52,789 nucleotides of DNA. It comes from Lophium mytilinum (Eukaryota). Position numbers and translations under genes: made by a program. Location of the stretch: the NCBI GenBank assembly GCA_010093605.1, contig MU004191.1, positions 289,397-342,185 of the forward strand, read 5' to 3'. The notes under the pieces are model-generated. The model searched no databases. It saw nothing but the letters and a program-made list of their open reading frames with translations, and had not been told where the DNA came from. Below, in pieces: positions 2 to 52,789 of this stretch (position 1 is the stretch's first letter; every line of letters begins with the position of its first letter).

Positions 2-976
2 TCCTCGCACAAATCGATCAGAGATATCCGCGCCTGGCTTCGTGGCCTCCACCGCCATGCTCAACACGCCCGCTTCCCCACCTCATCTCCCTCTGTACCC
101 AGCTCGCTCTCTATCCCCTTCGCCCTACCGCCGCCCGCCATCCCCACCACCCCGTCCACCTCTTCCGAATCCACGCAAGAGTCCGCCTCCTGGAAAGTGT
201 TTAGCGCCCGCTCGCTACTCACCCGCCACCACTTCCTGAAACAATGGAAAAGCTACTTACGAGAGCGCTCAGAAGAGCTCGCGCGCTCGGAGAAGCAGAA
301 GTACGGCTCCATGCCGCCGACGCCGGTTCTGCTCGCACAGGACAACGAGGAGATGATACCGCTTCTGTTTCTGGGATCGCAGGAGTACCCGCACTGCGCT
401 ATCACGATCGCGGTCACGCCGCCGACGCCGGTCCTGGGCCCTATGCCGCCGACGCCCGTCCTACGACCACAGGAAGACGTGGGCATGATACCGGTGCTGG
501 ACCTGGACCTAGACGCGCAGGAGGGTTGGGGGACACCTCAAGAGATCTTAGTGCACCTAGAGGAGCAAGGGTACGAGTACGCCATCGAGATGGTAATCAT
601 GCCGCCGACACCCGTCCTGCGACCGCAGGCAGACGTGGGCGTGATACCGGTGCTGGTTCTGGACGCGCAGGAGGGTTGGGGGACAGCGCAAGAGATCCTA
701 GCGCAGCTGACAGTGCCGGAAGGCGAGTGGGAGGGGAGCGGGGTGGGTGGGTTGAAGAGGTCGAATGCGGTTAGGGGAAGGAAGGAGAGGGGGGTGCGAC
801 GGGTTGGGAGGGGGGAGAGGCAGGTGGGGAGAGCGGCGGGGAGGGAGGTGCTGAGGGGAGAGGAGATTGTTGAGGAAGTGAAGAGGGGCATTGAGGAGTG
901 GCGGCGGAGGGCGAGGCGGGATAGGAGGTTGAAGAGGAGGTGTAAGTGGCTTGTTAAGATGGGGTTGGTGAGGTGA
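2..976 (+). CDS. Hypothetical protein with internal PPTPVL repeats and Arg-rich C-terminus; 5' end lies outside the window
   Basis: The frame of ORF 197..976 stays open back to position 2. Four PPTPVL motifs, two longer near-identical units and a basic tail (RRRARRDRRLKRRCKWLVKMGLVR). No recognised domain. Confidence 0.55.
   Translation, partial: SSHKSIRDIRAWLRGLHRHAQHARFPTSSPSVPSSLSIPFALPPPAIPTTPSTSSESTQESASWKVFSARSLLTRHHFLKQWKSYLRERSEELARSEKQKYGSMPPTPVLLAQDNEEMIPLLFLGSQEYPHCAITIAVTPPTPVLGPMPPTPVLRPQEDVGMIPVLDLDLDAQEGWGTPQEILVHLEEQGYEYAIEMVIMPPTPVLRPQADVGVIPVLVLDAQEGWGTAQEILAQLTVPEGEWEGSGVGGLKRSNAVRGRKERGVRRVGRGERQVGRAAGREVLRGEEIVEEVKRGIEEWRRRARRDRRLKRRCKWLVKMGLVR
311..710 (+). repeat. Intragenic direct repeats, including two ~115-bp units 156 nt apart (starting 443 and 599)
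   Basis: MPPTPVLRPQEDVGMIPVL..DAQEGWGTPQEIL versus MPPTPVLRPQADVGVIPVL..DAQEGWGTAQEIL, with more degenerate copies at 311 and ~416. Confidence 0.9.
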
Positions 977-1733
977 GGATTCTGGTGACGAGGGTATGGC
1001 GGTTTGGTGAGCTCTTCTGGGAAGACTTGTGTTGGGTATACGGCGGGAGCTTGGAGGGTGAGAATTGAGAGGCTTGGATGAAGTCTTTTAGTGGTGCTGG
1101 TTTGGATAGAACAGTTTAGAGATGGGGTGGTCTGGTGGAAGTTCTATTGGGGTGTGGTATCTGGAATTTGGAGTTTAAGTTTCAGTATTATAAACGTTGA
1201 AACAAGTAAAAAATGAATGGAACGGCGAAAGTTGCCGTATATGCTAAATTAATGATAATGATGTAAGTGCCATAGCACCATATACAGGGTACTGTAGGTT
1301 CTGTGATAAATCTGAATCTTGACGTTGATGACTGTAATTTTTTCGAATTAATAGCGTCGTGAAGAGCGTAGTTGCTTGCCTAGTCTGCAACTTGACGTGT
1401 GTGTTGGAAACAAATGTCAGTCTATACGAATATGATTTGGTCTATACTGGTATGCGTGAGTACGAACACGTCTGCCACCAATCCTACTGGGACTAGTTTC
1501 TCGCTTAGACCATCCGTATTGCAGAATGCTATAAAACAATAACGGATCTAGTTGCTGAGCTAGGTGTGCAGCTTTCATAACAGTATTAGGGAGTGAAGGG
1601 CTTCTGTAGATTGCAACCCAGAGTTAGGTTGGTACATGTTCGATATATGATGCAATAGCTAATTCTATAGTTCCATAGGTACGGAAACAGTCCGCTGTGA
1701 ATGATGTTTGTGCTAGAGCACTAGACACGTGGG

Positions 1734-1774
1734 AGCTCTTCGCCGGACCCGACAAGCTCTTCGCCGGACCCGAC
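1734..1774. repeat. Tandem duplication of AGCTCTTCGCCGGACCCGAC (period 21)
   Basis: Two exact 20-mers at 1734-1753 and 1755-1774. Confidence 0.9.
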
Positions 1775-2890
1775 GGGCCCGAAGACTGTCCTTAGAACAT
1801 CCGCTAGAAGGGGGTAGCGACAGAAATAGAACCGAATCAATGTCAGGATTCAGGAGAAGTATGCCGTGTGTATGCCTCGCAGGATAAGCGAGCATTATAT
1901 CAGATTCAGCTGGTTCCCGCAGCCATCCGAGCCACAAACCGCGTCAACAAGCATACATTGAAGCTTAATTGCTAGTGGCATGCGCGCAATGGATCCGGAT
2001 TGAGACAGTGGAGCGTGGCTCAGGGCGGAGGCTCTCACTTGAAACATCTGCGACGAGTTGATACTGGGTCGCAAGCTGATGACCCCTGGAGAAGGTAATT
2101 TCGAATACTTGTAACCGATGCGAGTAGAGGCGTCCAGTGTCAAAGATTGCGTCAGATGCTGCGGCAAGCCATACGAAACACTGCAGTCCAACAGGCAGCA
2201 ATGAGTCTTGAGCATTCGAGGAAGCTCGTATGCTCGAGACGGCAGGGCTGTTGCTTACAATTAGCTGCTGCGCCACTAGGGAGCACAGACGTCCTAGGTT
2301 TTCACAGCCAACCGTTGTGGTCAGTGTACGGCAGGCTAACCGCAATGCGTGATGCTTGCGAAAAGTCACTCTTCGCAGGTGAACGACTCCGAACGGCGAC
2401 ACTCTCGCTCCGACGCCCCGATGGCTATTTGCAGTCAAGCACCTCGATTGCGCCCTATCCCCAGGTACAATTCTCTCGTATCATTCGGCCAACCGAAGCG
2501 TGTCGTTGTGCCTGGCCTGATAGCTCTCCCATTCTGCGGTTCTAGATATGGACCAGTGCACTTGGCACACTGCTCTCTCCTCGCATTGACGCGCCATCAT
2601 CGTCTCCCCGGTTGCTCAACTTACCTGTTGTGCTCGGCCCGACCGTTCTATACCCTATTATCACTTTCAGGCTTCGATCGCTTACGAGGACTTACTCCCA
2701 GGGCGTCTGAAAGTCTGAATGGGAGACGTGTGCTTCGGGGCGGAGTGTGTCCCTGAGGTTCTTCATAGCGTACTTCTATCGTGGACTGCCTGTACTGAGG
2801 CTCCAATATCTGGATCAATGCTAGACTCGTGCCTGGCAAAATTCCACGTCTGAGTCATCACTCTTTTCTACTTTGCCTTCAGTTCGTATC

Positions 2891-5026
2891 ATGGTGTACA
2901 CGGGAAAGCCAAGCCGGGGGTGTCAGATGTGCAAAACCCGCCGCATTAAAGTAGGTCCTGAACGGAAGACCTTGCGATGTGGCAACCCTCTTCATCCGCC
3001 GACTTCCACTCTGTGTGCTGATTGTGGCATAGTGTGATGAAAAACGTCCCATCTGCACCCAGTGCAAGAAATCTGGTCGTACATGTCCAGGTTCGTCTAC
3101 CTGTTCTGGATGCTACGGCCGTACTAACATAGATATCTACATAGGATACCAGGATGAGTTCGACCTTATCTTCCGAGATGAGAACATAGTGCAGGAGCGT
3201 AAAGCAAGAAAAGCTTCAGGGGCTACATCTACCTCCCAAGGATCGTCCTCAAAGTGAGTAGCTAGCATCCGTATCTGCCTCTTTTTTGTACTCAAAGTCA
3301 TCCGTATCACCTCTATCTAAGTCTCAACCGCTTTTTTCGCGGTATTCATGCGTATGGCTCCCAAAGGAGCAGTGCTTGCGATTCCCACGTAATTCTTCCA
3401 ACACGGGCTGACACCTTCTGGGCAGAGCATCGCCTCGTTCTTCCTCCGAGCAGAGTCCTGTTTCGACTCTTACACTCCGTTCAGAGAGTCCACATTCACA
3501 GACGTTGCCGGCGAATGACGGTTCCCCTCCCTACCTTCTTCCCACAGATCTCACACTGTTCCAGGCCTACCTATGGCAACAGGGAAATGCAGTACCTGCA
3601 GTATTCCCACCGTCGACGGAGGCTCAAGCCACCGCATTCTTCTTCCGTAATTTCGTTGTATTACCGCAGCAAGCAGAGAGCATGCGCGGATTTCTTGAAT
3701 TGCTAGTCCCAAAGTATAATGAAGAATCGCCCTCCTCCGCCCTCCACTCTGCTACACATGCTGTTGCACTCTCTACGTTAGGAAATTACCCTGGCAGGCA
3801 AAATCTACTACAAGAAGCGTCTATAGCGTATGGTCAAGCATTGACCAAGCTTAATGTGGCGCTGCAAGACCCAGTAGAATCCAAATCTGATGCTACCATA
3901 TTAGCAGTACTGCTGTTCTCGCTCTATGAGGTATGCTATCTGAAAGCGACTCCAAAATGCTTCGTCTGACGTTGAAGTACAGGCTATCATGGCAACCGCT
4001 GAAACGGTCAACGCATGGGCGAACCACGTTGATGGAGCCGTGGCTCTCGTCAAACTCCGAGGCAATGAACAGTTCAAGAACCCGTATTCGTATAGTGTGT
4101 TCCGAGCTGTGCGGACAATGATGGTGCGTAGCCCGAGCGCCCTGTTATCTTTGGCTTCAATTGAGCTAATCCGACACAGATCACAAGCTGCGTGCAACGG
4201 TCGATGTCAGTCACAGAATTTCCAGGCGAGTACGGCTGGATTGGCTCCGAGCACAGCGAAGAAAACGCGGCAAACCGCCTCACATTGATATCCATCGACC
4301 TACCAAACGTGCGGACGCGCGCTCACGACCTCCTCACTAGCGAAAAAACTCCTGAGACCGAAGTGGAAGTGCTGTCCTTGATGGAGTACGCACAGATGGT
4401 AGACGCGAACCTCGAGAATTGGGCTCACACGCTGCCTGACGACTGGAATTTCCGAACGACGAAGATGGTGTACGACATGCCGGAGGATGTGGAAAATGCG
4501 AACGAATGGCCGGGCCCGCAGCACACGTACGGAGACGTCTTCATTGCAAACATTGTCAACGACTACCGCGTCAGCCGGATATTTTGTCAGAGCGTCATTC
4601 TAGGGTGCGTCACATGGCTGGCACTGGAGCAGGAGGACCACCGGATAGAACGCAAGTGCGCGCGCGCCCGCTTCGTCATCCAAGCCATGACGGACGAGAT
4701 TGCAGCGAGTGTTCCTTTCCACATGAACTACGACCTGCAGCCGGTGGCGAAGCAGCTCGGTCAGGACCAGTCAGGTTAGTTCGAGATACTCCGTCGGTGT
4801 GGGTAATACTGACACCAACTTAGCTGCTGAAGCATTAGGGGGCTACTTCCTCGTTTGGCCACTCTTCGTGGCTGGGAATACAGATGTTGTGCCCATAAAC
4901 CAGAGGAAGTGGTTTCTAGGGCGACTCAACCTCATCGGCCGCGAGTTTGGTCTGAGCAATGCTCAGATACTCGCGATGGCGCGTCGACACGTGCTTACGT
5001 GCGGTCCAATCTACGTCTACCCATGA
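2891..5026 (+). CDS. Zn(II)2Cys6 transcription factor with C-terminal fungal-specific (Fungal_trans_2-type) domain; 7 exons
   Basis: Spliced N-terminus MVYTGKPSRGCQMCKTRRIK|CDEKRPICTQCKKSGRTCPG|YQDEFDLIFRDEN. Predicted exons 2891-2950, 3033-3090, 3145-3253, 3426-3930, 3983-4123, 4180-4774, 4824-5026 with GT..AG introns. Typical YGQALTKLNVALQDP..SDATILAVLLFSLYE, WANHVDGAVALVKLRG and GGYFLVWPL motifs. Confidence 0.92.
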
Positions 5027-35634: not shown

Positions 35635-37060
35635 TCAGGCCATCCACGAGACTTTGTACATCCAGAAGCAACAAAGTTCGTTGGGAGCTCCGAAGGCAGT
35701 TCCGGCCATACCGAAGGGGGTCATCCGCCCACAAAATCCTCCCCTTTTAGAATTGGTTATGTATCGTTTCACAAGGACAACGAAGCCGGTGCTGGGGAAA
35801 ACACTCCCTTCTAACCAGAATTCGTCAGCATCATCTTCCGCCCGGGAAGAAACCAGCTGTAAAGAATCATCGTCGCTTCCTGCTGAGACCTCAAATTGGA
35901 CCTTAAATAAATGGTGCATAGTCGGAGCTCTTTGCGTGCCATGGGGGTCTAAAGGGATGTTACAGATGAACCCTATCCACTTCCCATCTTCAAGGAACCT
36001 CTTGGTGGCCATCATTGGTAAGTGGCGGGAAATAAGATCTGGACCATTCCCGGGAGCAAATGGTGAGGGTATATCCATGAAAACTGAGAGTGGGATAGCT
36101 TCGTAATTCAGAGGTGGGAAACTCCGAGGTAAGGTTTGGCCTAGAAGTGATACGGATAGCTTTGCGAATTCTACAGCAACCGCTGCAACTACTTTCAGCA
36201 GTAGACTGGCTAGAACGACGGGAAAATGTCGCTGGCTTGGTTGGTAAGAAGTTGCTAGATCCGTAAGCTGGTGCAGCAACGGAATCATCCAGCTTGCTGA
36301 TTTGATGTTACAAACTTCTTTCTCGCGAAGCTCCAGGAGTTTTGTTGTAGACGGTGCGCTTTTGTTCAGGGTTGAAAGCACGGACGCGGTGATGCAGAAT
36401 TGAAAGGGATATTTGTATGCGACAGGCCACTCCGTATTGTGGTAAACCAATCTTAGCGTATTATCATCGTGCATGGGATCTATCTTACGTCAACCTCGAT
36501 GTATAAAGCAGCTTGTCATTACGACTTAGCTTGGAAATCGAGAAAACCTTAGAAAACGTACAATGTCTCGCGGCTAATGACGGGCCCCATTTCAATATGC
36601 GCTCAATATGGCCGTGACGAGATTCCAAATTAGTGGTCTGCGTCATTTGATTGTCTGAAGGTATTATTTCATGGATGAAGTCATGGAGTTCTGATGATCT
36701 CGATGCTGCCAGTGCGAAGTTCTTCCAGAGCTGAAGTTCCGATTCATTATCGAGGAACGTCGAGTAGTCCCACTTTTGTCCTGCTAGGCTCACTTGGTGT
36801 TCGATGATGTTTCTGAAAGTTGTCCAGTGATTGCAGATATTGTGTATGTAACGCGAGACTTGGAGCAGGGTGAGTGTGGATTCACAAGGGCCCAAAGATG
36901 CGATATGCTGTATTATCTCCACTGGTAGCTCATTTAGCTTGAGCGATCGCTGTGGCACCTTTCGAGAAGGCTGGTAGACGGAGACGTCTCGAGAGCTTCG
37001 AAGCCTCATGTTTTGAGATGGCAGTGATGATGTTGAGGGGCACCGGACGTTTCGCGACAT
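35635..37060 (-). CDS. F-box-like domain protein; 2 exons
   Basis: LNELPVEIIQHIASL..LLQVSRYIHNIC near the N-terminus. Intron 36561-36480 (GTACGT..TAG) joins ORFs 36485..37060 and 35635..36474 in frame. C-terminal G.MTPFGMAG..CCFWMYK. Confidence 0.75.
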
Positions 37061-37299
37061 TTATCGGGTGCGAAATAGCGTAGAATCCTTGGCACATTTT
37101 TCTTAGCGTTTCTTACTAAACTTTATATAAGGATCGCGGGGAGCACTACCTATTTAAATATTAACCTATTAATATCCCCTTAATAATTTATAAGTAAGGT
37201 TATTTACCTATACTATATAACTACTTACTAATATTTTCTAGTATTCTAGTAAATCTTATATAAGAGCTCTACTTTACCTATACTACTAAAATATATTAC

Positions 37300-38440
37300 T
37301 ATAATTAGTACCTTCTTTCTATATTTTAACGCCTTAATATTATATAATATACTAAGCTAGGCTAGCTAGTAGTAGATATTATAATACTAGTAAAAGTATT
37401 ACTAGTAATAGTATATAATATATAGTAGAACTTAGTATATTATAGTACTCTAGTTAAACTATAATTCTTAAAGGCTAAATAACCTTATAAGCTTACCTAG
37501 GTAGATAAGAAAAAAGTCTTTAAGTAGCTTCTAGAGAAAGAGTAGAGAGACTAGAATAAGATTATTAAGTAGCTTAAAATAGAGTATAGTATTAAGGTTT
37601 TATAGATATATATCTCTTATATACTTAAATAGTATAAGTAGACTAGAAAGGCTATAAAGTATTAGTTAAATAGGGCTAGCTTTAAGTTTTAGCGCCTCTA
37701 TTTTAAGAATCTTATATAGTATAACCCTAAGAATCTTATTTTTCTTAATAAGTCTATTTTTAATAAGAAGACTAGCTAGTAGTACTATATATATATACCT
37801 ATTAGCTAGCCTACTTACTATAAGAATAATATAGTATATAGTAAGATATAGGCTATCTATACTATAATAATACTCTAGGGCTAGCTACTATATACTAGAG
37901 TAAGAGAAGAATACTTTAAAGTAGATAATTTCTATAACTAGGTTATTAATACACTTCTACTAGCTATTTAAGGAGAGTTTAATAGAGCTATTAAGGTAAT
38001 TATACTAGATAATATTAATATATATATAGATAATTAAATTATTAATAAGATTCTAGTATAGAGCTATATTATAAAGTACCTACTACTATACTTACCTAAT
38101 TTTAATCTAATTAAATTAACCTTTATAACTCTAAAGGTATAGATCTATTACTATTACTACTACCTACGCCTAGTATATTAGAACTTTAGTAACTTTCTAT
38201 AGGCTATAATAGAGTAGAGTTATTATAATAGATTTATTTATAAGTAGTTCTACTATACTACTAGAGGTATATATATATAAATAGAGAAGCTAAAGTAGAT
38301 TTAAATATACCTAGATATATATAAGAAAGGTAAAAAAAAGAATTAGGTAGAGAAGAAGTAGGTAGAGAAGAAGTAGATAGAGAAGAAGTAGATAGAAAAG
38401 AAGTAGGTAGAAAAGTAGATAAAGAAGAAGGCCTAAGTAT
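37300..38440 (+). mobile_element. RIP-inactivated Tc1/IS630-family (DD34E) transposase relic; terminal repeats not resolved
   Basis: One frame reads FLNKSIFNKKTS* at 37741 (de-RIP FLDESIFNEKTGW), ILDN with D at 38008, and YLLLYLPNFNLIK with K(E) at 38113 (de-RIP YLPPYSPDFNPIE). 34 codons lie between the second D and E. Confidence 0.82.
38344..38430 (+). repeat. 15-bp tandem repeat (GTAGRTAGAGAAGAA x ~5) at the 3' end of the transposase relic
   Basis: Directly visible; period is a multiple of 3, consistent with an acidic C-terminal tail. Confidence 0.85.
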
Positions 38441-40105
38441 ATACTTTATATAGCCTTTCTATTTAATATATACTCTATATATAGTATTACTATTTTAGTA
38501 TTACTATTTTAGCCTTACTATTTTTTATATACTCTATAAGGCTTAAGTATTAGTACTAGTAGATAATCTATAGCTTAAGTATTAGTATAGAGTAAAGTTA
38601 TATAGTAAAGCTTAATAGCTATTATTTATTTTTTCTATATATTCTTACCTCTCTTTTAACTCTTTTCTTTCTTTAAACTCTTATTAGGAAAACCTAAAAC
38701 TATAAAAGTTAGGGCTGTTAGTACTTAGTAGTAAACGGCGTAAACTTCTAGTAAACTATATAAATTACGCAACATCTATATAAACTACTAGCGCAGGTAA
38801 TATTACTATATAGACTAGTAGTAGTTTATCTATATACTATATAGCCTAATAATACTTAATTATTATCTATTATTTTAAACTATTAATAATTTAGTTCTAT
38901 AGTATCTTTTACCTAATTAGCCTTAGTAGTGCTAGAGCTAATATATATATACCCTATATATAATACTACCTATATTTTACTATAAAATAATTCTATTTAC
39001 CGCTCTTTCCTCTCTATAGTAGTGCAAGGCGGGGGTAGAAGTAAGTAGAGATAGTAAGTACTTAGGCTAGAATATCTAATCTTTATCCTATAAATAGTTA
39101 GTATAGTAAAGTTAGGGCTATAGTAGTTAAAAAGTAGATTTAATAGATATATAGAGGATAGATAGAAAAGATATAATCTATCTATTCTATAATTTAGTAC
39201 TAGGTCCGGCTTATAAATTATAATTAGAATACTTAAAATATTCTTAGGTAGACTCTTACTATATTACTACTAAGATCTATTATTTAAGAGTTAGGCTATA
39301 GTATATAACTATCTATAAATAATAAAAAGTATATAACTATTCTACTACTAATATAAGCTTTAGTAGTAGTCTTTTATATCTATATTATAGAATAGCCTCT
39401 AGTATTATAGCTATAACACTACCGCCTCTATAGCCTCTTTTTTCTATTTACTTCTTCTATATTTCTTATTTCCCTTTATATTAGTATACTTTACTTCTTC
39501 TACCTATATTTTAGATTGCCGCTCCTCTATTTATAGTCTTTTCTATTATACTTCTAACCTTAGAAGTTAGAATACTATTATTTTATAACCTAGCCTATAG
39601 TATACTTATGCGCTAAAAGGCGATAAGAATATATACTTTCTATCTAGCGGGGTAGTTATAGAACCTAAAATATACTTAAAGAAATAGGCTAGAGTCTCTT
39701 TTAGAATATAAAAATATAGAGGGTATACTATAATAATTATAGATAATCTTATATAATTCTAGATAATTTTACGCAGTACTATAAGAAGAGTTAGAGATAT
39801 TAGAGTAGAGGTAGCTTTATTTTCCCTTTCTCTACTATGTTATTATATAGTAGATAGTTATCTATTACTAGCGTATATAAGGGCTAGATTATCTCTATAA
39901 TACTAGATTAAAGTATATCTAGCGCTAGTAATAGAGTATATATTCTATCCGCCCGCTTATTTTTTAAGAAAAGTAGGGCTAGAGAAGTAATAGTTAAAGT
40001 AGAGTTAAAAGCTAGTAGGAAATATAGATATATAGTTATATATAGTAGTTAAAAAGATTAAGAGCTATATATATAAAAGATTATACTAGAACTAAGGCGC
40101 TATTA

Positions 40106-40237
40106 TATAGAGTAGAGCGGGAGAAATAGAGAAACTTAGTAGAAAAAAAATTCTATAGAGTAGAGTAGAAGAAATAGAGAAACCTAGTAGATAAAAAAGC
40201 TTATAGAGTAGAGTAGAAGAAATAGAGAAGCTTAGTA
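40106..40237. repeat. 48-bp tandem repeat x ~3
   Basis: TATAGAGTAGAG..GAAATAGAGAA.C.TAGTA units start at 40106, 40154 and 40202. Confidence 0.88.
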
Positions 40238-41584
40238 AGTAATATAAGCTAGTAATACTAGAGTATATTATCTTTATCTAATATAGCTCTATAGAACTAT
40301 ACTAGTCTAACTACTAATTTAGATATTAGTATACTATTAGCTTTCTATTATAGTAGATACTATTAGTAAGCTATATCTATATACTACCTCTTATTCTCTA
40401 TATTCTAGCTTTTTAGATAAGTTTCTACTAGCTTTAGCCTCTACTATAATTTATTAGTATATATAATTTTAATACCTACTATATTTTAAATAGTTAGCCT
40501 TAAGTTAATTTCTACTATAACTCTTCTACCTTTTTAACTCTTACTACCTTCTACTACTCTATAGTATAGAGAAAGAGATATAGGGTAGGCTTTTATACCT
40601 ATAAAATAGAGGAGAATAGTTCTATTATATATATAGGTAGGCGCTAGAAATTTAAGACTTAGGCGCATGTATTTTAACTAATAGTTACTATATACTTTTT
40701 TCTTAAGTATACTATTAGAATCTTATATAAGTGCGTCTTTATAGTAGTATACTATTATTACTAATAGTTATTTTTAATTAGCCTTAGGTTTAATCCCTTA
40801 TATTATAGCTTAACGCGCTAGGTATTATAACTATAAAATATCTCTAAATAGGTATTATAAAACTAGTAGTATTTTTAAGCGTATATAGTTTAAAGGGTTT
40901 ATATTAAAAGTAGGTAGATAAGTAGTTTCTAAGTTAGAGCTTAGAGTAAAGGTAGGCTCTAAGATATAAAATATATATATATACTATATATCTATTAAAA
41001 GTTAACTTAGTAGTAGTATAAGAGTATAGAAGGTATATAGAGAGTATATATAGATAGACTTATATAGTTCTATTTAAGGCCGCTTTCTATCTATATATAC
41101 GCTAGAAAATTAGTAATTTCTTAAGAAGGTACTTACTATACTAAGTATATATACCTTCTATATCTACTTTTAGGTATCTCTTAAATAATATTAGGGGAGT
41201 AGAAGATAGTAGAGTTAGTATTCTCTTTTTTATTTCTTACTATATAAGTATATATAATTTCTAAGGCCTCCTTAATACTAGTTTAAGCTATAATTAGGCC
41301 TATTTTAGCCTTATATAAGGCCGCCTCTACTATCTTTAAGCTATCTAGGTCTTCTATAGATAATACCTTCTCTATAGTATTTTTTTTATTCTAGTTAACT
41401 TTCTCTACCTAGTTCTTTCTATTATTAAAGTAGTATATATCTAATTTATCTTTATCTTCTATAAGGTTTATAGGCTCTAGTTTATTAAATAGCGCTTTAT
41501 ATTTATTCTTTAAGGTTATACCTTAAGTCTCTTATTCTAATACTACTATTCTTAAGTTCTTCTCTTTAGCCTTAGCTATTACTA

Positions 41585-41733
41585 AGGTCTCTAGTAATAA
41601 TAGCGCCTTTTATATACCTCTAGTCTTCTAGTATATTAAGGTCTATAGCTTATCTATAAAGATATAGGTCTCTAGTAATAATAGCGCTACTTATATACTT
41701 CTAGTCTTCTAGAATATTAAGATCTATAGCTTA
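41585..41733. repeat. 81-bp period tandem duplication
   Basis: AGGTCTCTAGTAATAATAGCGC..CTAGTCTTCTAG.ATATTAAG.TCTATAGCTTA at 41585 and 41666. Confidence 0.88.
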
Positions 41734-43184
41734 ACTACAAGAATATACTTAGTATAAATTTAGACTTCTAGTTAGAGATTATAGTTATCTTTCTTCTCTT
41801 TCTTTCTATATATAGCTGTATAGCAGCTAATAGTCTTACCTAAGGCGGCGTAATTTAAGTAGAATAATATTAGATTTATAAGGCTAACTTTAAATATAGA
41901 ACTATCTTTAGGGTTAATAAAGTAGGTATATATTAGTAAGAGGACTAAATATAGGTTAGTAAATATATAATCTTCTTATATATAGTAGCGGTGTATATTT
42001 TAGGTCTTAGTAGTAGTAGAAGGTCTTTCTAATATCTATATTAATAATTATAGATTAGAATATACTTAGTAGAGTAGGTATTAAAGTATAGCTTATATAT
42101 ATAATTAGTACTATACTACTAGTAATATTAAGTATATTTATAGATATATTAATTTAAAGTCTATAGCTCTTATATAGCTATACTACTATATTTTCTTTAC
42201 CTCTAGAGTATTTAAAGCTACTTTTATCTAAAACTATAGATACTATAAGCTCCTTATACTAGTAAATAGTTAGTAGATATAGATAGGAAAGTAGTAGATA
42301 GACTTATATAGGCCTAATTTTTAATAAAGAAGCTTTTAGAGCTATCTCTATAGGCCTTCTTTACTACCTCTAGTATAGTCTTTATCTCTAGCTTATTAAA
42401 CTAGCCGCCCTTTATATTACCTAATTCTTAACTTAAAACTAGGTATAGTAAATACTTATATATAGACTAGATAAGTATATTATATTTAATTTTAAAGTTA
42501 GTAATATCTTTCTAAGGGTACTAAAGAAATATAGTAGCTTTCTCTAGATTATCTCTACTATATATAGTATATAGCGCTTTAAAGTAGTCTATATAGCTAT
42601 TTATATAGATAGTAATAGTAAAGTCTACTAGTCTATTCTAGTAGACTACTATCTACTCTATTATAGTAGCGGGGTTATAGTAATTTAGGCTATTAAGCTA
42701 TTAGTAATATAGTAAGAAAGAGTATAGTAAGACTTATATATAAGAGTAAGGTTAGAGTTAGATTTTACTTACTAGCCTACTTAGTTATTAGTAGAGAAGG
42801 TAAAGGTTTTTACTAGCTATAATATAATGCGCGCCTGCCGGGTAAAGTAGATTTATAGCCTTAGCTTAGATAATAGATAATACTATATAGCCTAAGAAGT
42901 TAAATAGTTAAGGTAGACTTTATACTATTATAAAAGGGTAATAATCTCTAATTATAATTAATTATATTAAGTATTAGAGGTAATAGAGTAGAAGCTATAG
43001 GTAATACTAGGCTCTATAAAGAGTAGTCTTCTAGTATTAGGGCCTAAAGGTAAAGAATAATATATACTACTTTAGAATTAAAGAAAGAATTTAGGTCTAT
43101 TAAATAGAGTAGTAGGTCTACTAATAGAATACCTCTTAATATTATTAGAAATACAGCCTCTAATATTAGCTACTCTAGGTATTA

Positions 43185-43552
43185 CTTTAAATAGTTTATA
43201 GAGCGTAAATCTTAACTAGTATAACTAATTTATATATACCTGCGTAGTATTTAAATAAGTAGTAGCCCTACTTAATAAGAAGGGGTATAATAGAATTAAG
43301 ATAGGTAAGATAATATAAGTAGCAGGCTAACTCTAATTATAAAAGGGAGATATATATAATCTCTAATTATAATTAATAATCTATAAAAGAGAAGAGTTAA
43401 GTATATAAATAGTAAGAAAAATTAAATTACTAGTAATTAACTTATATATTAATATTTCTTTAAATAGTTTATAGGGCGTAAATCTTAACTAGTATAACTA
43501 ACTTATATATACCTGCGCGGTGTTTAAATAAGTAGTAGCCCTACTTAATAAG
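43185..43552. repeat. 95-bp direct repeat (43185-43279 and 43458-43552), second copy cut by the assembly gap
   Basis: Copies are identical except for a few C/T and G/A transitions. Confidence 0.88.
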
Positions 43553-43717
43553 NNNNNNNNNNNNNNNNNNNNNNNNNNNNNNNNNNNNNNNNNNNNNNNN
43601 NNNNNNNNNNNNNNNNNNNNNNNNNNNNNNNNNNNNNNNNNNNNNNNNNNNNNNNNNNNNNNNNNNNNNNNNNNNNNNNNNNNNNNNNNNNNNNNNNNNN
43701 NNNNNNNNNNNNNNNNN
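43553..43717. other. Assembly gap (Ns)
   Basis: Run of n characters. Confidence 1.
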
Positions 43718-44995
43718 GGTCTAGACTAGTATACTTATCTATAAGGCTAGTAGATCCGTAATCTATATATATTATAGTAGAAGATAATAGTTATAGGCTA
43801 AAGTATTTATTAGTATTTAGGTCTATATAGTAGACGCAACTATATATATAAAAGAATTTTAAAAAAGTAAAGGTTAGCGTTTTACCCGGTAACGCGTATA
43901 TATAAGTATTATAAATAATAAAGTCTTAATAGTATTACCTAAATAGCTAGAAAAGAGATATTATATTAGTAGATATCTATAGAAGAGGAGGTGCTTACTT
44001 ACCTCTTTAAGTAGGCTAATACTTACTAACTCTTCTAAATAATTTATCTTAGTATTATATCTTATAGTATAGGGCTATAAAAGAATTATATTCTAACTAT
44101 ATATAAATAGGTGTAGCTTTAATTAATAAAATACTTATTCTATTAGCTTAATATTATTAGCTAGAACGTTATATAGCTTATAGGTATTAGTTTAATAGAG
44201 CTAAAATATAGAATATTATTACTAATATACTTAAAGTTATAGAGGTAGAAGATATCCCCCTCTTTAGATATATATACTCTAGTAAAGGTAGAGGGTATTT
44301 TATAGTTCTAACCTAGTTTAAAGAGAGGTTTATCTATATTTAACTAGACTAGAATAGATAAGTATAGTTTAAGTATATTAAGGTCTATACCTTATACCTC
44401 TATCTTATAGTATTAATCTACTAGAAAGTAGTTTATAACTTAACTATAGCCTAGAACCTCTAGTATAGATAATATACTTACTATAGGCGCTATTTAGAGT
44501 TAATTACTATAAAGTATTAAGAAAAGAAAGTAATTAGGGGGTAGTAAGTTTAAGTAGCTAGTAAATTTAATTAGGCAGCCATTATTAGTAAAGAGAAATA
44601 GGTAAAGATAGTAATATATAATTTTAAAAAGTAAAGTAAGGTAGCGCTAGTAGAGTATACTAGTATTACCTAGTATTATAGAAATTATATAGAAAAGTAT
44701 ATAGTTATTATCTTATATTAATTAGCCTTAGAGGTTAATAAAGCTAAATAATACTTAATTATCTCTTAATAGTAGAGAAAAATTAAAAATATCTTTTCTT
44801 ACAGCCTTATTTCTACCTATACTATTACTTACTAGTGCTATAGCCCCTCTTTACTATACTACTTCTTAGTATTTACTAGCTTAGTTATAGAAGAGAGGTA
44901 TTAGTAAGTACTTTTACCTTTATACGCTTTACTAAAATCTCTACTATATCTTTAACTTTTAGGGTAGCTTTAATCTTTTTAACGCGACCGCTAAG

Positions 44996-45726
44996 TATTA
45001 TAAACCTAGAACGCGAGCTATCCTAGAATAAGTATTCTAGAAGGAGGACGGCCCTAGAATAGATATTCTAGAACTAATAGTGTGCTAGAATATAGGCTAT
45101 TCTAGAATAAATATTCTAGGACAAGTATAGTCCTAGAATAGAGGTACTAGAACCTAAGGGGACCTAGTATAGTAAGATAGATATAGTTCTAGCTATATCT
45201 ATATATAGGAGGGTATTTAAAAAATAGTAGAAAGATAACTAGAAAAGGTAGTAGTTATAGAATATAAGGTTATGTAATTAATTTTCTAGATCTTACTTAG
45301 TATAAACGCTAAGGGTAAGATTAAGAAGAGTAGAGGGTAATCTCTATAATCTTAGTAATCTTATATTAAGAATAGAGATTAAAGAGGATAAAGAGAGTAG
45401 AACTAAATTATATAAAGGTTAAATAACTATAAGAGTCTAGAGAATTCCCTATTATCTTTTATTCTTTATACTTAACTTCTTATTATATCTAGTATATAGA
45501 ACTTAATAGTAATTAATTATAACTTAAGTATCTTAACTATCTTTATATACTTTTAATACTATTAAAGCTACCTCCCTTTTAATATTCTACTTATTTATAC
45601 TTAAACCTTATATTACGTATTAGCCTATAACATAGTTAACTAGTAGGTAAGTAGAAATCTAACTATCTAGACTCTCTCTCTAAAGTCCTTTAGTATAATC
45701 TTTAGGTAAATAGGTAGTTTATAATA
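44996..45726 (+). repeat. 5' LTR (731 bp)
   Basis: Colinear with 51942-52672; the differences inspected are transitions. Confidence 0.95.
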
Positions 45727-45859
45727 CTTTAAGTACCTATAAGTATTAGATACCTATAGAATAAGTTAAGCTATTCTAGTAATATCTATAACTTTAGAAA
45801 TAACTAGTTAGCCTACTATAGTATAGCGTATAGTAGAGTAGGATAAATAGCTTATAGAG

Positions 45860-48800
45860 CTATGCACCGCAATATTATAGCTTTAGGTAAGGGCGGAGTA
45901 GTAGGCTTAGGCCTAGTTAACTAAGGTACCTTTACTAAGAAAGTATAATAGCACCTAAGGGAAGCTTAATAGCTTTCTTATAGAAATATAACTTTACCTT
46001 TACTATAACTAGGCTATATACCCTAAGGAACCTAATAAGGTTCTAGTAGTAGGTATATATCTAGAGGGTAATACCCTTATATAGTTCTACCTAATAATAG
46101 AAAATTTTCTTAATAATTCTGCGGATAAATAAGATAATAATACTAGAAGAGTCTTTAAAAACTATACTATCTTTAAGAAATATATTAGGGACATCTATAG
46201 AGACTCTAATATAACCTAAACTACTATATATAAACTCTAGTATCTTAAATAAACTAGAATAGTAGCGGAATACACGGCTAAGTTTTAATAGCATTTAGCG
46301 CGACTTAACTAGAATAAGAGCCCCCTAGTTAAATAGTATTACGCGGGTCTTATAGATAAGATTAAGGATAAGTTTATAAGTATTAACTAACTAACTAAAC
46401 TTAGTAAGATAGTTAAACTCTATAACTAGATTAATAACCGCCATATTAAGAGAATATTAGAAAAAAAGAGCTAGTAGAAACTAGCAGTAACTATAGGGAA
46501 GAGATAGAAGTACTCTTAGAATAATTACTATAGGGACTTAATAGATTTAGACTATATTAGTAAATAGGCCCTAAAGAAGAAATAGATAAAAAAGAAGAAC
46601 TCTAAGCCTAACTTTTAGAGGCTAAATAAGAACTAGCTTAAGAAATAGTATAATAATAACGCGTATCTATAGTGCGGTAAGACTAGCTACTACTAATAAG
46701 ACTATCTAGCGGGAGAGTTTAAGGGCAGTCTAGAAATAAGCACTAATACTAGAGTTACTATAATCTAGGACCAGCTACTAGAGAACGTAGAAATTCTACT
46801 TAACTAAGTATAGATTAATACTTGCATCTAGCGCAAGGTATACTAGATCTATAGAATGCTAATCTACTAAGGACTAGAGTATAAAATAGGATATTAGAAA
46901 ATCTATATAGACTATAATAGATATAATAAAGAGAAACTATTTCTTAGAGAAATTAGGGCCTAGTATATAGATACCTATACTAAGGTATAAAGAATATATA
47001 TAGAGTACTACGCTAGGTAAAAGCTTAAAGAAAGAGAATAGATATATAATGTATAAGAGAAACAGGCAGCTTATTATAAGAAGAGATAATAGTATAATAC
47101 GCTACTATAGATAATATATAAACTAGAGGAATATAATATCTATAGTTTATAATAAATAGATACTAATAGGTAAAGAGTAGTAAAGAAACTAATACTCTAT
47201 AGAAATATAAGTTTTATAGTATACTATAATAATAACTATTAAATACATTACTAGGCTAAGGAAGAAAGTAATTACTTCCCTTAGAAGGCAGAATTATAGA
47301 AGATAAGGGCGGATACTCTAAGACCCTCTACTAAGGTTAAACCTATAATACTAAAATAACCTACTAGTATCTTTATAGATAAAGAGTTAGCTAAAGTAAT
47401 AAAAAACCTTAATATAGATAAAGATTTTATTATAATTAATAATAAAGCCCTAGAAGACTAGGGCTTAGAAGAGTTAGATAACCCTAATACCTAGAAAAAT
47501 ATTAGCGCTAGAAACTAGCTTAACTAGATAGAAGAGACTATAGCGGAACTAATAGACGCCTCTATAGATAAGGAGTCTAGTAATAAGAATAACTATAGAA
47601 GTAATAAATACTAAGCACTCTATTAGATATAGTATAAGAATAGATATAGGTACTACTAAGAAGGAAAGAGAGTAATAGAATAGGATACTAAGGACTAGTA
47701 CTATCTACTCTTACGCTTAGTAGAATACTTTAAGAGTGCTAGATACTATATCTATAGCGTAGACCTATAGCCTAGGGTTCTAATAGATCTAAAAAACTAG
47801 TAGGCTACTAGACTAAGGAATTACTAGAAAATATAGTAATAATATTTCTAAGAAATATATATAGTATATAGCTCTAGTTATACTTATATATTAACTTTAA
47901 GATTAATAAGAGACTTAAAGGGAAAGTATTAGTAGATAGTAGAGTATTCTAGAGCTTTATATTACTAAGATAGGTAGAGAATAAAGACCTTCTATACTAA
48001 AAGAAATAGAAATCTAAGAAAGTCTAACTAGTAGATAACTAACTACTAGAGTATAGAGGAGGAGTAATTAACCTTAAAACCCGACCTATAATATTATTAG
48101 TAGCTAGCTATATAGAGACGCTATATATAAATATTATAGATATTAGAGGGCTAGATATAATTCTAGAATAGAATTAGCTCTACTAAAATAACCTAGTAAT
48201 TAACTAGAAGAAGAGAGAAATAAGACCGGTAGCCCGGGTGGCTGGGATTAGATAATTAGTTTAGTAATAACTAGAAAACTAGAAGAAAGAACTCTTTATA
48301 GGATAAATCTCTCTATATAAGATTAAGAGAATCTATAATAAATAACTAGCGGATATAGAAATTATCTAGCTATAATAAACGGCTACTATTAAAGAAGTAG
48401 TTATAGAGATACTATAAAAAGACTACTTAGAGTTTAAGGAACTCTTTAAGAAGAATATTAAGAACGCGCTACCTTAGAACTAACTATAGGACTATATAAT
48501 ACTACTTAAGAAAGGGGTAAAGCTAACCCTAAAATCTATCTATTTATTATCTTAAAATTAGTATAAGGCGCTATAAGAATATATTAAGATAAACCTAGCT
48601 AAGGGCTATATTAAGGAAAGTAAGAGCCTAATAGCCTTACTAATCCTCTTTATACCTAAGAAGAATAAAAAACTATAACTATATATAGACTATTAAAGAC
48701 TAAATAATATAATAATTAAGAATTACTATCTATTACTACTTATCTAGGAGTTGCAAGACTACTTATAAGAAGCTAAGTAGTTTACTAAGTTTAATATCTA

Positions 48801-51343
48801 AGAGGGATATTACTGTGTTAGAATAATACCCGGCAAAGAGTAGAAGATAGCCTTTAGAATAAGGTTTAGACTCTATAAGTATAGGGTAATACCCTTTAGC
48901 TTAACTAATACCCTAGTAATATTCTAAGTGCTTATTAACTATGCGCTATAATAATATCTTAACGTGTTTATAACTATATATCTAGATAATATATTAGTAT
49001 ATACTAATAGAACCTTAGAAGAATATAAGAAATATATATAAAAAGTACTTATAAAGCTATAAGAGTTTAGACTTCTAGTATACCTAGATAAAAGCGAGTT
49101 TTATATTATAATAATAGACTTCCTTAGCTTTATTATCTTCCGCAATGGAATTAAGATAGACCTAAAGAAGACTATAGCGGTTTTAGAATAGCTAACGCTA
49201 TAAAATATAAAGAATATATAGTTATTTCTTAGTTTTATAAACTTCTATAGAAAGTTTATTTAGGGATATTTAAAAACCACCGCACCCCTTATAGAGATAA
49301 CTAAGAAAGATAAGGGATTTTAATAGACAGTAGAAATGTAGACTACGTTTAATAAACTTAAGAAGAAGTTTACTACCGCCCTAATCCTAATAATATTTAA
49401 CCCGGAACTAGAAATAATAGTTAAGGTAGACGCCTTAGACTATGCTATAGGCGCTTACTTAAGTTAAAGGCACCTAGATAGAAAACACTAACTAGTAGTA
49501 TTCTATTTAAGAAAACTTACTCTAGAAGAACTTAACTATAACATCTATAATAAGGAGTTATTAGTAATTATAGTAGCATTTAAGTAATAGAGACTCTACC
49601 TTAAAGGACTAAGGTACTAGGTAATAGTCTACTCTAACTATAAGAACCTTACAGCCTTTACTACTATAAAGTAGTTAAATAGATAATAAGTAAGATAGGT
49701 AGAGATGCTAGCCTTATTTAACTTTAAAATCTATTACTAGAAAGGATTAGAGAATAGAGCTATAGACGCGCTTAGCCGCTAATTAGACTATATACTTAGT
49801 ACTAAACTAGTATATAATATAGTACTTATAAGGGCTATAGATAGCACCTTATAATATAATAATCTAAAACTAGTAGTAATACTTAAGATAAGTAACGCTT
49901 AGATAGATAAATTCTAGAAAGAAGATAGATATATAGAGGCCTTCTAATATAATACTTCTATAATCTTAGATAAAGATAGTAACTAGATATACCTAATAAA
50001 GAGAACGTTATAGGTACTAGAAGCGTGCTGTAAGAAACTTACTAAGAAATACTATAGCGCGCTAATGTATAGATACTAAGGATAAGAAAAAACCTTAGAG
50101 AGACTCTTAAGAAACTACTAGTTTCTCTAGATAAGGGTAATAGTAAAAGAAGTAATTAAGAACTATAAAGACTGCGGAAAAAATAGAATAGTAAGATACG
50201 CACCCTATAGATTACTTTAGAACCTAAGGGTTTTTAAATAACTATAGAATTTAGTAATAATAGACTTTATTATAAAGTTACCCCTATTAGTAGAACTAGA
50301 AACTAATATAAGCTATAACTTAATCTTAGTACTTATTAATTAACTTACTAAATTCTTATACTTTATACTAGTATAAGAAATATATAGTGCAGCTAAACCT
50401 AGCTTATATAGTACTATAAATCCTACTAAGTAGCTACTAGCTACCTAAGGAATTTATTACTAATAGAGATAAACTCTTTATTTTATACTTCTAGAAGACC
50501 CTTATAGTAAGGTTAGAGGTAAACTATAAGCTCTTAATAAGTTTCTACCTATAGATAGATAGATAGATAGAATAAATAAACTAGACTCTTAAATAGTACC
50601 TATAAAACTATATTAACTATTAGTAGAATAACTAGGTAGAACTACTATCTATAGTATAGTTTACCTATAATAGCGCTAAATTAGCTATAACTAGCAAGTC
50701 CCTATTTTATATAAACTATAGCTATAAGCTAGAGGTATATTAGAAAGCTAGGGAAGATATAATAAATATATAAATAGTAATAGAAAAGGCGGCGTTGCTA
50801 AGAAACTTACACGCATATCTTAACTAAAGTATTTAGGCTAGAAATAAGATAACTTAGGTATATATAGATAAGAAACGGTTAAATAGACTAACCTTTAAAA
50901 AGGGGGATAAGGTTTACCTATACTAAAAAAACCTTAAGACTAGAAAACCTAGTAAAAAACTTAATTACATTTAAATAGGACTATTTAAAGTTAATAAAGT
51001 TATTAGTTCTATAAACTATAAACTAAAACTACTAAAGAATATAAAAATCTACCTAGTATTCTACGTATTACTACTTAAACTAGCACTAGTAAACGCTAAA
51101 CTCTAAACTGCTATATAACTTAAGAAGAAGGATAAATATAAGGTTAAAGAAATCTTAGAACTATAGAAGATTAATAATTAGTAGAAGTACTTAGTTAGGT
51201 AGAAAGAATAGAAAATAGACTAAAATACCTAGAAACCTATTAAGAACCTAAGGAACTGCTAATAATTAGTAAACTAGTTTTACTAAAGGAATCTAGTAGC
51301 GCTAGATTTTAGGTAGAGGGAGACTCTAGGGCAGCCTAATTAA
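45860..51343 (+). pseudogene. gag-pol relic of the chromovirus (boundaries approximate)
   Basis: De-RIP motifs: CCHC knuckle 46664-46705, protease LVDSG ~47929-47943, RT YLDDILVY at 48979, RNase H DASDYAIGA ~49429 and NYDIHDKELLA ~49534, integrase MDFIVKLP ~50260, chromodomain YEVEEIL..YLVRWK..NTWEP ~51136-51250. Confidence 0.9.
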
Positions 51344-51821
51344 CATTTACTAGCAGGTTAAAGAACCCGGGTAATAGCTATCTAGAGAATTAGGCGGCGG
51401 CTAGCTTCTCTACCTCTTCTAAATTCTCTAACTTCTTAATAGAAGTAAGCTTCTGCTTAAATATTTTCTTATAGTAATACTTAAGAAGCTAGAGTTACTT
51501 CTAAATATAAATCTTGCGCGTAAGTACTACTTACTCTACCTCTTTATAAGTAAGTATAGCCGCCTCTATAGTAACTAGCTAAGCCTAGAGCTTAGCCTCT
51601 ACTTTCTTAACTTAAGTCTAGTATTTTTTAGTTACTACTAGATTATAGGACTTTAGGTTGTAATTAAGGTACTTAGAATACTAACTAAATATAGTATCTA
51701 CTAAATAGTACTAATAGAAGCGCTAATAGTTTCTATAGAGAGTTAGTATATTATAATTATAATTATAAATCTTAGAGGCTAGACATTTATAATAGATAGT
51801 TAAGGTTTTAACCTTAGGTAT
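51309..51821 (-). pseudogene. Antisense extra ORF of the retrotransposon: RIP-degraded Zn(II)2Cys6-like cluster followed by a coiled coil
   Basis: One minus-strand frame whose only stops are TAG/TAA. TAT/TAC codons (RIP of TGT/TGC) fall at C-x2-C-x6-C-x8-C-x2-C-x7-C spacing (51737-51645), followed by a Glu/Lys/Leu/Ala-rich helix. Confidence 0.7.
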
Positions 51822-51941
51822 AGCGAGGAGAAGAAAGAGTAGAGGATACTACCTTAAGAGTATAGGGGTATCCCTAGCCTTATATAGAACTAAGATAGTA
51901 TAAATTAACTTTTAGGCTAAAAGCCTTATAGAAGGAGTAAG

Positions 51942-52672
51942 TATTATAAACCTAGAATATAAGCTATTCTAGAATAAGTATTCTAGAAGGAGGACGGCTC
52001 TAGAATAGATATTCTAGGACTAATAGTATGCTAGAATATAGGCTATTCTAGGATAAATATTCTAGAATAAGTATAGTTCCAGGATAGAAATACTAGAACC
52101 TAAGGGGACCTAGTATAGTAAGATAGATATAGTTCTAGCTATATCTATATATAGAAGGGTATTTAGAGAATAGTAGAAAGGTAACTAGAAAAGGTAGTAG
52201 TTATAGGATATAAGGTTATATAACTAATCTTCCGGATTTTACTTAGTATAAACACTAAGGGTAAGATTAAGAAGAGTAGAAAGTAATCTCTATAATCTTA
52301 GTAATCTTATATTAAGAATAGAGATTAGGGAGGATAGAGAGAGTAGGACTAAATTATATAAAGGTTAAATAACTATAAGAGTCTAGAGAATTCTCTATTA
52401 TCTTTTATTCTTTATACTTAACTTCTTATTATATCTAGCATATAGAACTTAACAGCAATTAATTATAACTTAAGTATCTTAACTATCTTTATATACTTCT
52501 AATACTATTAAAGCTACCTTTCTTCTAATATTCTACTTATTTACACTTAAACCTTATATTATGTGTTAGCCTATAACGCAGTTAACTAGCAGGTAAATAG
52601 AAATCTAACTATCTAGACTCTCCCTCTAAAGTCCCTTAGTGTAATCTTTAGGTAAATAGGTAGTTTATAATA
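51942..52672 (+). repeat. 3' LTR (731 bp)
   Basis: Colinear with the 5' LTR and followed by the TSD CTAAG. Confidence 0.95.
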
Positions 52673-52789
52673 CTAAGCTAGTACTATCTTATTACCTCTT
52701 ACGCTTTTATTTTCTAGTCTTTTATATAAAGTATATTATATTAATTCTAGTTAATATAGTTATTAATAAAAAAATAGGTAGAGTCTAGG

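Follow-up and report, generated by a model that had tools for sequence, protein, structure and literature searches.

Does the 3' end of a mutationally degraded retrotransposon in the fungus Lophium mytilinum hold a gene of its own, and if so, what kind of protein would that gene have specified? The locus lies in a 52,789-nucleotide stretch of contig MU004191.1 (assembly GCA_010093605.1, positions 289,397 to 342,185), here called the window. Positions 1-37000 of the window are gene-rich, with ~50% GC, and 37000-52789 form an AT-rich block of 21-30% GC. Within this block lies one complete 7.7-kb Ty3/Gypsy long terminal repeat (LTR) element on the plus strand, degraded by repeat-induced point mutation (RIP). 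A first-pass annotation had proposed that a minus-strand open reading frame (ORF) of this element, 51821->51309, encodes an accessory DNA-binding regulator with a GAL4-type cysteine cluster followed by a coiled coil. We find that the frame is the relic of a genuine accessory gene, which exists and is conserved at the protein level. Our preferred reading, to which we assign a probability of roughly 0.6, is that 51821->51309 is a RIP-killed copy of a conserved accessory gene of an ascomycete Ty3/Gypsy chromovirus lineage, whose product would be organized like a minimal Gal4-type transcription factor.

The antisense frame and its tyrosine pattern

The proposal started from the spacing of tyrosine codons. 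Re-reading the translation recovers this spacing as it had been described, Y-x2-Y-x6-Y-x8-Y-x2-Y-x7-Y in the minus-strand frame 51821->51309, starting at 51737. The consensus of the Zn_clus family (PF00172) is C-x2-C-x6-C-x5-12-C-x2-C-x6-8-C, and the spacers of the window (x2, x6, x8, x2 and x7) satisfy it, with Tyr being RIP-compatible with Cys. The gag CCHC knuckle of the element serves as an internal control for this conversion: RIP has turned Cys/His into Tyr at the known zinc sites of the element, namely the gag CCHC motif and, in part, the HHCC motif of the integrase. RIP indices of the element are extreme (TA/AT 1.88 and (CA+TG)/(AC+GT) 0.12, compared with 0.73 and 1.20 in the gene-rich part). 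The frame has 15 stops in 171 codons, all of them TAA or TAG. With 14 of these stops internal and all six Cys read as Tyr, the window copy of the antisense gene is dead.

Several properties of the frame weigh against reading it as a gene, and would be expected if the Tyr spacing and the helix-like run of Lys, Glu and Leu were chance products of RIP in AT-rich DNA. The six frames of 37001-52789 contain three instances of a relaxed pattern, Y..Y.{6}Y.{5,12}Y..Y.{6,8}Y. The first-pass annotation had itself cautioned that RIP makes Tyr codons common. The Tyr spacing alone is not beyond chance. Stop density is equally ordinary: the frame has 12 stops per 144 codons, a number not exceeded in 21% of background windows. 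The frame is lifted above chance because it is homologous to an intact gene family that occupies the same position in un-mutated relatives.

Intact relatives carry the gene at the same position

The RIP-degraded pol of the element matches two intact relatives, P0002 and P0003, each 41% identical. Scanning JGI metagenome contigs with P0003 yielded a 4768-nt relative, L003, in which pol is an open reading frame at 399..3926 and an intact ORF of 194 residues (P0052) runs on the opposite strand at 4374->3793, overlapping the last ~137 nt of pol. The antisense accessory ORF that had been postulated between pol and the 3' LTR is therefore present, undamaged and at the same place, in an un-RIPped Gypsy relative. 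P0052 starts with an N-terminal helix, continues as MPTPC-GR-C-KSLGLE-C-RVEISSGR-C-TL-C-ASQHKT-C-DLRVTF, with a Cys spacing of C-x2-C-x6-C-x8-C-x2-C-x6-C, and ends with a long charged helix (terminating in EEVERLAAEAA) and an acidic tail. The manual reversal of RIP offered by the first-pass annotation was essentially right: its reading (MPTPC..C..C, CLVD, SGRC, CDL.VT and a helix with ..EEVE.L at its end) matches the consensus that the intact relatives yield. Upstream of the P0052 start codon lies a spacer of ~90 nt with a purine-rich run, followed by the polypurine tract TAGAAGGGGGG and the LTR start TAGTGTCATGG, which resemble TAGAAGGAG and TAAGTATTATAA of the window.

A second relative, L006 (7396 nt), is a full element obtained by scanning IMG/VR with a pol alignment; its LTRs are 100% identical over the 300 nt compared. 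The antisense gene lies at 6621->5915 and is recognized by the hidden Markov model (HMM) of the family with E 3e-13. Its N-terminus, MPKLK, is like that of the window, and the two share the x7 spacer before the last Cys. All three elements with a visible 3' region, namely the element of the window, L003 and L006, thus agree in the place and orientation of the antisense gene. Two points temper this agreement: genomic context is known for these three elements only, and the frame of the L006 gene is broken once, between Cys2 and Cys3. By LTR identity L006 looks young, yet its gene is split (6157-6621 and 5915-6640, minus strand); the break may stem from an error in sequencing, from a recent mutation or from another cause. 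Five further candidates (L001, L002, L004, L005 and L007) were set aside as being without a 3' region or unrelated.

P0052 has 17 homologues (E 4e-71 to 4e-11) of 109-289 residues. One carries the name 'hypothetical protein, partial [Friedmanniomyces endolithicus]'; contigs of 5.6-7.2 kb hold several others. Together with P0052 they form the family alignment A1 of 18 sequences, whose members are 35-74% identical. All members share M-P-T-P-C, C33, C40, V42, S-G-R-C, L-R-V-T, E-F and several positions in the helix, and 17 of the 18 keep the fifth Cys and 16 the sixth. Scans with A1 found no relatives in viral contigs and none in prokaryote genome contigs, and a scan of viral contigs with P0003 likewise returned none. 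The pol ORF of P0003, the nearest intact relative, extends ~290 residues beyond its chromodomain (residues ~1190-1483), a tail with no similarity to the L003 DNA.

Conservation at this level also bears on the possibility that the antisense RNA is what matters, as a source of double-stranded or small RNA that regulates the element, the ORF being incidental. Antisense transcription with a possible double-stranded RNA role has been discussed for LTR elements (PMC7264820), and Gypsy elements of Botrytis are strong sources of small RNA (PMC8365987); these and the other papers cited here are represented by titles and portions of their text. The family is conserved in its amino acids, with invariant Cys, Pro, Gly and Arg at overall identities of 35-74%, and its frames are open in 18 sequences, which argues against an incidental ORF and makes this explanation improbable.

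RIP-aware comparison of the window frame with the family

In order to compare the degraded frame with the family, each T was allowed to have been C and each A to have been G. This is a best-case score, and controls were treated identically. Against the family profile the window frame reached 161.4 bits. The first null, 356 other 171-codon windows from the six frames of the block, had a mean of 72.9, a standard deviation (sd) of 11.1 and a maximum of 110.5; the second, 150 codon shuffles of the candidate, had a mean of 82.7, an sd of 6.6 and a maximum of 106.2. The frame thus lies 8 and 12 sd above the window and shuffle nulls, respectively. The alignment has 32 columns with at least 90% conservation. 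The window frame is identical in 7 of them and RIP-compatible in 17, so that 24 fit where 6.0 were expected by chance, and it is incompatible in the remaining 8. From M26 to C52 all 13 columns conserved at this level are identical or RIP-compatible; the column of the sixth Cys, kept in 16 of 18 members, falls under the cut. Against P0052 alone the score was 358, compared with 218.8 +/- 15.6 for shuffles, and 75 of 164 aligned positions were identical or RIP-compatible.

Searches that take the degraded frame at face value tell against homology, and they are the remaining argument for a chance pattern. The frame was searched as a protein with its stops read as X (P0001). Pfam, including Zn_clus, gave no match; a word-indexed search gave six candidates, none at E<=10; none of 1.84 billion representatives was matched by phmmer at E<=0.001; and BLASTP found no match between P0001 and P0052. 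The family HMM, run on the untreated six-frame translation, gave the candidate 1-2 bits (E 13-28). A search of the PDB with P0001 returned TFIIF alone (E 0.23), which we did not regard as a useful match. Since the plain searches were empty, homology rests on the custom RIP-aware score with its empirical nulls and on synteny. Given those scores, the compatible columns and a position, orientation and polypurine tract/LTR neighbourhood that match the ORFs of L003 and L006, chance is very unlikely, and we regard the absence of any gene as the least probable of the explanations considered here.

The fate of the element's own domains puts the empty Pfam searches in proportion. When the interior of the element was read through its stops, the Pfam scan reported none of RVT_1, rve and Chromo, which the intact close relatives do carry. 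RIP erases much of the HMM signal in the element, and an absent Pfam match therefore carries little weight here. RIP thereby hides such genes from standard searches, and RIP-aware scoring recovers them.

A second property, purine/pyrimidine periodicity, is undisturbed by RIP because transitions preserve base class. The log-likelihood ratio was 2.0 in the antisense codon phase and at most 0.6 in 12 LTR windows, a measure that is blind to strand ((+,0) 2.07 vs (-,0) 2.04). True coding windows of the element had a median of 2.8, with the true frame on top in 20 of 28, and the value of the antisense phase falls inside their range.

The region 51250-51950 is a member of a RIP-degraded family with multiple copies. 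A single sample sequenced in two DNA runs, X1 and X2, supplied 49 and 46 contig pieces of at least 80% likeness, and a further run, X3, supplied none. All 30 bins of the region are covered by several X1/X2 contigs at this likeness, in a form in which individual copies are not separable. Differences among the sister copies amount to 96 transitions vs 7 transversions. In one of these copies, codon 1 of the antisense frame is ATG. At the six Tyr codons the middle base is untouched by the differences listed (40 of 105), and Cys in the sister copies is neither seen nor excluded.

Predicted architecture of the protein

An intact product would have ~110-290 residues and start with a short N-terminal helix. 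The invariant MPTPC would then lead into six Cys, with a predicted fold like that of the Zn2Cys6 binuclear cluster, followed by a helix of ~80 residues, predicted to self-associate, and an acidic/hydrophobic tail. In its predicted order of parts the protein is laid out like a minimal Gal4-type transcription factor, with the cluster first, then the helix and then the acidic tail.

An AlphaFold2 model of P0052, computed from the 18-sequence alignment, has a predicted local distance difference test (pLDDT) score of 76.9, with 64-86 in the Cys region and 93-98 in the helix (residues 65-142). A Foldseek search of the PDB with this model gave 17 matches at E<=10, and among the matches listed 15 of 15 are Zn2Cys6 DNA-binding domains: Pho7, PPR1, 1cld, PUT3, LEU3, GAL4, HAP1, AlcR and a chain of the CBF3 complex. 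We take 1cld and the CBF3 complex chain to be of the Zn2Cys6 type. Matches confined to the cluster superpose with a root-mean-square deviation (rmsd) of 1.7-2.2 Å over 31-35 columns. Among the matches listed, the predicted fold of the Cys domain thus points, weakly, to Zn2Cys6 DNA-binding domains and to nothing else. Basic residues are frequent between Cys2 and Cys3 and before Cys6.

The ESM Atlas contains P0052 and gives 30 look-alike clusters at >=0.9, all eukaryotic and mostly from Ascomycota. The first three have 122, 62 and 90 members, and others include clusters of 140 and 77. Structure neighbours in the Atlas comprise a 204-residue cluster automatically named 'Zn(2)-C6 fungal-type domain-containing protein' together with ordinary Zn_clus transcription factors, the Zn_clus neighbours having template modelling (TM) scores of 0.63-0.82 by query. 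A cluster of DUF3716 is also among these neighbours. Another domain, DUF5651, gives a weak, sub-threshold Pfam match in 14 of the 18 members of A1 (best E 0.023), which spans the last two Cys and LRVTF, residues ~48-68 of P0052. DUF5651 and DUF3716 may be distant relatives of the family.

In the homodimer model P0052 self-associates via residues 64-124 with a score of 0.35; the best of three controls scored 0.01. The mark applied is reached by 21 of 30 solved one-chain pairs and by 0 of 23 solved single chains (17 of 29 and 0 of 30 for eukaryotes). Contact agreement between the runs was at least 84% and the pLDDT of the partner at least 73. Coiled coils are common among solved structures, and the pass may reflect likeness.

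The same data leave room for a different protein, one that is real and is not a sequence-specific DNA-binding factor. It would combine a structural zinc module with a helix scaffold and could act as a chaperone of RNA or nucleic acids, as a Gag or integrase partner, as an adaptor for integration targeting or as a counter-silencing factor. Several results speak for it. Zn_clus was the profile proposed for checking the GAL4-type cluster, and the family missed its Pfam gathering threshold of 21 bits with a best score of 14.6 bits (E 0.037); only 4 of the 18 members match at E<=1, and in P0052 the match is out of register. Compared with the PDB, the family profile found no Zn2Cys6 chain at E<=10. 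The spacer between Cys2 and Cys3 is x6 in 9 of the 18 members and x8 in the other 9. The structural comparisons are modest in strength, with a best Foldseek E of 0.58 and VIA Z values of 2.1-3.1 (rmsd 1.7-2.5 Å over 33-39 residues). Finally, the predicted dimer is antiparallel (i + j ~190), which would place the clusters at opposite ends, unlike in Gal4. Antisense ORFs at the same position in plant elements are likewise described as being of unknown function in the portions of PMC7264820 seen.

Set against this structural module are the matches listed for the predicted fold, all of them Zn2Cys6 DNA-binding domains, the order of cluster, helix and acidic tail, which is that of fungal zinc-cluster activators, and the frequent basic residues of the cluster. 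On balance we consider the module a less likely reading, and by some distance the strongest competitor of the DNA-binding regulator. The GAL4-type cluster of the first-pass annotation accordingly stands in its spacing and, weakly, in its predicted fold, and falls short in the Pfam score and in the half of the family with x8. Its coiled-coil dimerization element is borne out in so far as a long helix follows the cluster and is predicted to self-associate; the antiparallel arrangement departs from Gal4.

Possible function of the antisense gene

The gene of the preferred reading is antisense, with the chromodomain end of pol on one side and the polypurine tract and 3' LTR on the other. This placement means that it would require a promoter of its own, located either within the spacer of ~100 bp or within the 3' LTR. 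Spacer 51822-51926 presumably represents the 5' untranslated region or promoter region of the gene. The family protein may bind zinc and DNA. From its layout, the most likely function is that of an element-encoded DNA-binding regulator of the element's own LTR, a tentative assignment that we place slightly below even odds. More tentative still is the wider proposal that a widespread ascomycete chromovirus lineage makes its own minimal Gal4-like factor from an antisense promoter at the 3' LTR. This factor would switch the element on or off via sites in its LTR or in host promoters and would be a fungal counterpart of retroviral antisense regulators such as HBZ.

Two observations concern possible binding sites in LTRs. 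In L003, CCGCGG and one CGG-N6-CCG occur at 4527-4545, ~55-70 nt inside the putative start of the 3' LTR, a single anecdotal case. Sites of the type CCGCGG and CGG-N6-CCG are bound by Zn2Cys6 dimers. In the window, the palindrome TTCTAGAA occurs in 10 copies, compared with 2.1 expected, and none of 100 shuffles reaches 10; each LTR has three of these copies within its first ~130 bp (45035-45107 and 51967-52067). TCTAGA could derive from TCCGGA under RIP, and one may speculate that the palindromes are remnants of repeated regulator sites.

Relation to known antisense genes and zinc-cluster factors

The brtn gene of Boty elements was reportedly described by Zhao et al. in 2011 (Virology 417:248). 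In fungi, it is the antisense gene known between pol and the 3' LTR, found in Boty-like elements of Botrytis and Sclerotinia (PMC7264820, PMC8365987, PMC4227169, PMC5987419), and it is the closest precedent for the antisense gene studied here, as far as a comparison of descriptions goes. Unlike the present family, brtn is not associated with a Cys cluster, a coiled coil or a transcription-factor-like layout in the portions of these descriptions seen, and none of the 17 homologues of P0052 carries the name BRTN.

Plant elements have antisense ORFs between pol and the 3' LTR as well, among them gene23 of Grande and those of RIRE2, Retand and PvRetro13 (PMC7264820). They are like the family in position and orientation, in being kept within families and in their suspected regulatory role, and the antisense product of Grande is nuclear (PMC7264820). 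They differ in belonging to plants and mostly to non-chromovirus lineages, and the descriptions compared, from part of PMC7264820, mention no Zn2Cys6-like domain. Their proteins are said to have no clear similarity to other database proteins, and the function of both the plant and the Botrytis ORFs is given as unknown (PMC7264820, PMC8365987).

Gal4-type factors (Gal4, Ppr1, Put3, Hap1, Leu3, Pho7 and AlcR) share with the family the spacing C-x2-C-x6-C-x8-C-x2-C-x6/7-C, seen in the window and in 9 of the 18 relatives. The family model superposes on their domains at ~2 Å over 31-39 residues, and a helix and then an acidic tail are predicted to follow. The family differs from them in scoring below the gathering threshold, in having the x8 spacer in half of its members, in its tiny size and in having no Fungal_trans middle domain. 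Its predicted helix of ~80 residues would pair in antiparallel fashion, whereas the coiled coil of Gal4 is short and parallel. The family gene is carried by a retrotransposon, and Gal4-type genes are carried by the host.

HBZ of human T-cell leukaemia virus type 1 (HTLV-1) is a basic leucine zipper (bZIP) transcription factor whose minus-strand gene is transcribed from the 3' LTR. Like HBZ, the antisense gene would represent a regulator of a dimerizing DNA-binding type that a retroelement encodes in antisense at its 3' end. The family and HBZ, which is the bZIP product of a vertebrate retrovirus, are unrelated in sequence and host, and the analogy is a functional one. An antisense promoter in the 3' LTR is mentioned for HTLV (PMC7264820, from the portion seen).

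That LTR retrotransposons can carry extra antisense genes has been recognized for decades in plants and since 2011 in Botrytis (PMC7264820, in the part seen). In the literature, a zinc-cluster antisense ORF in fungal LTR elements was not found among the matches listed, which were titles and abstract starts with subscription journals mostly uncovered. An antisense accessory gene in Gypsy elements is thus known, whereas the transcription-factor-like layout and the breadth of the family apparently are not. A recognizable layout of cluster, helix and acidic tail turns an ORF of unknown function into a testable hypothesis of a transposon-encoded transcription factor. A share of the small ascomycete proteins named hypothetical or Zn(2)-C6, such as those in the large Atlas clusters above, are probably transposon genes. 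If the Gal4-like factor were real, many small orphan proteins of this kind in fungi would be retrotransposon genes, and brtn may be one of them.

The element and its surroundings

The features of the element are listed in Table 1.

Table 1. Features of the RIP-degraded Ty3/Gypsy element, in window coordinates.
Feature	Position	Strand	Basis or remark
5' LTR	44992-45728	+	737-bp blastn match to 51938-52674, 92.9% identical
gag CCHC zinc knuckle	46661-46714	+	Frame of 45731; reads Y..C....Y....Y; motif spotted by eye
RNase H domain of pol	49333-49713	+	Pfam RT_RNaseH_2 5.6e-19, RT_RNaseH 8.4e-17; frame of 45730, residues 1202-1328
Integrase_H2C2 zinc-binding domain	50029-50187	+	Pfam E 0.0051, 17.3 bits, under the 25.5 cut-off; His/Cys partly Tyr
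Integrase C-terminal SH3 domain	50903-51079	+	Pfam SH3_Tf2-1 6.5e-8; frame of 45731
Chromodomain-like pol end (YKVKEIL..KYLVR.KE....NT.KP.KNL)	51137-51292	+	Read from translation; aligns to the chromodomain end of L003 pol
Antisense accessory ORF, RIP-inactivated	51309-51821	-	171 codons, 14 internal TAA/TAG stops; RIP-aware profile score
Remnant of long helix/predicted self-association region (codons 61-143)	51393-51641	-	Aligns to family columns forming helix 65-142 in the P0052 model
MPTPC motif and six-Cys cluster (codons 25-59)	51645-51749	-	All six Cys positions now TAT/TAC (Tyr)
Spacer of ~105 bp from antisense start codon to polypurine tract	51822-51926	.	Purine-rich run 51822-51845
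Polypurine tract AGAAGGAG	51927-51934	+	Adjoins the 3' LTR; L003 counterpart TAGAAGGGGGG
3' LTR	51938-52674	+	737 bp, pairs with the 5' LTR at 92.9% identity

Within the element, no domain was recognized in the ~1.1 kb that separate the gag CCHC knuckle from the protease motif (46720-47900, plus strand); this part may be an extra domain or merely too degraded to recognize. In the remaining AT block, 37000-44991, no Pfam family was found in any of the six frames read through stops, and the DNA presumably consists of older RIP-degraded repeats. An 81-nt tandem pair lies at 41585-41746. A run of 165 N (43553-43717, an assembly gap) is flanked by a 100-nt direct repeat (region 43180-43552; copies at 43180 and 43453, 94% identical).

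In the gene-rich part, a host gene at 3054-4800 on the plus strand resembles a Zn2Cys6 transcription factor. It has a short exon at 3054 with C-x2-C-x6-C-x5-C-x2-C, and the ORFs downstream of this exon, 3412-3969 and 4165-4779, resemble, as judged by eye, the regulatory part of a fungal zinc-cluster factor.

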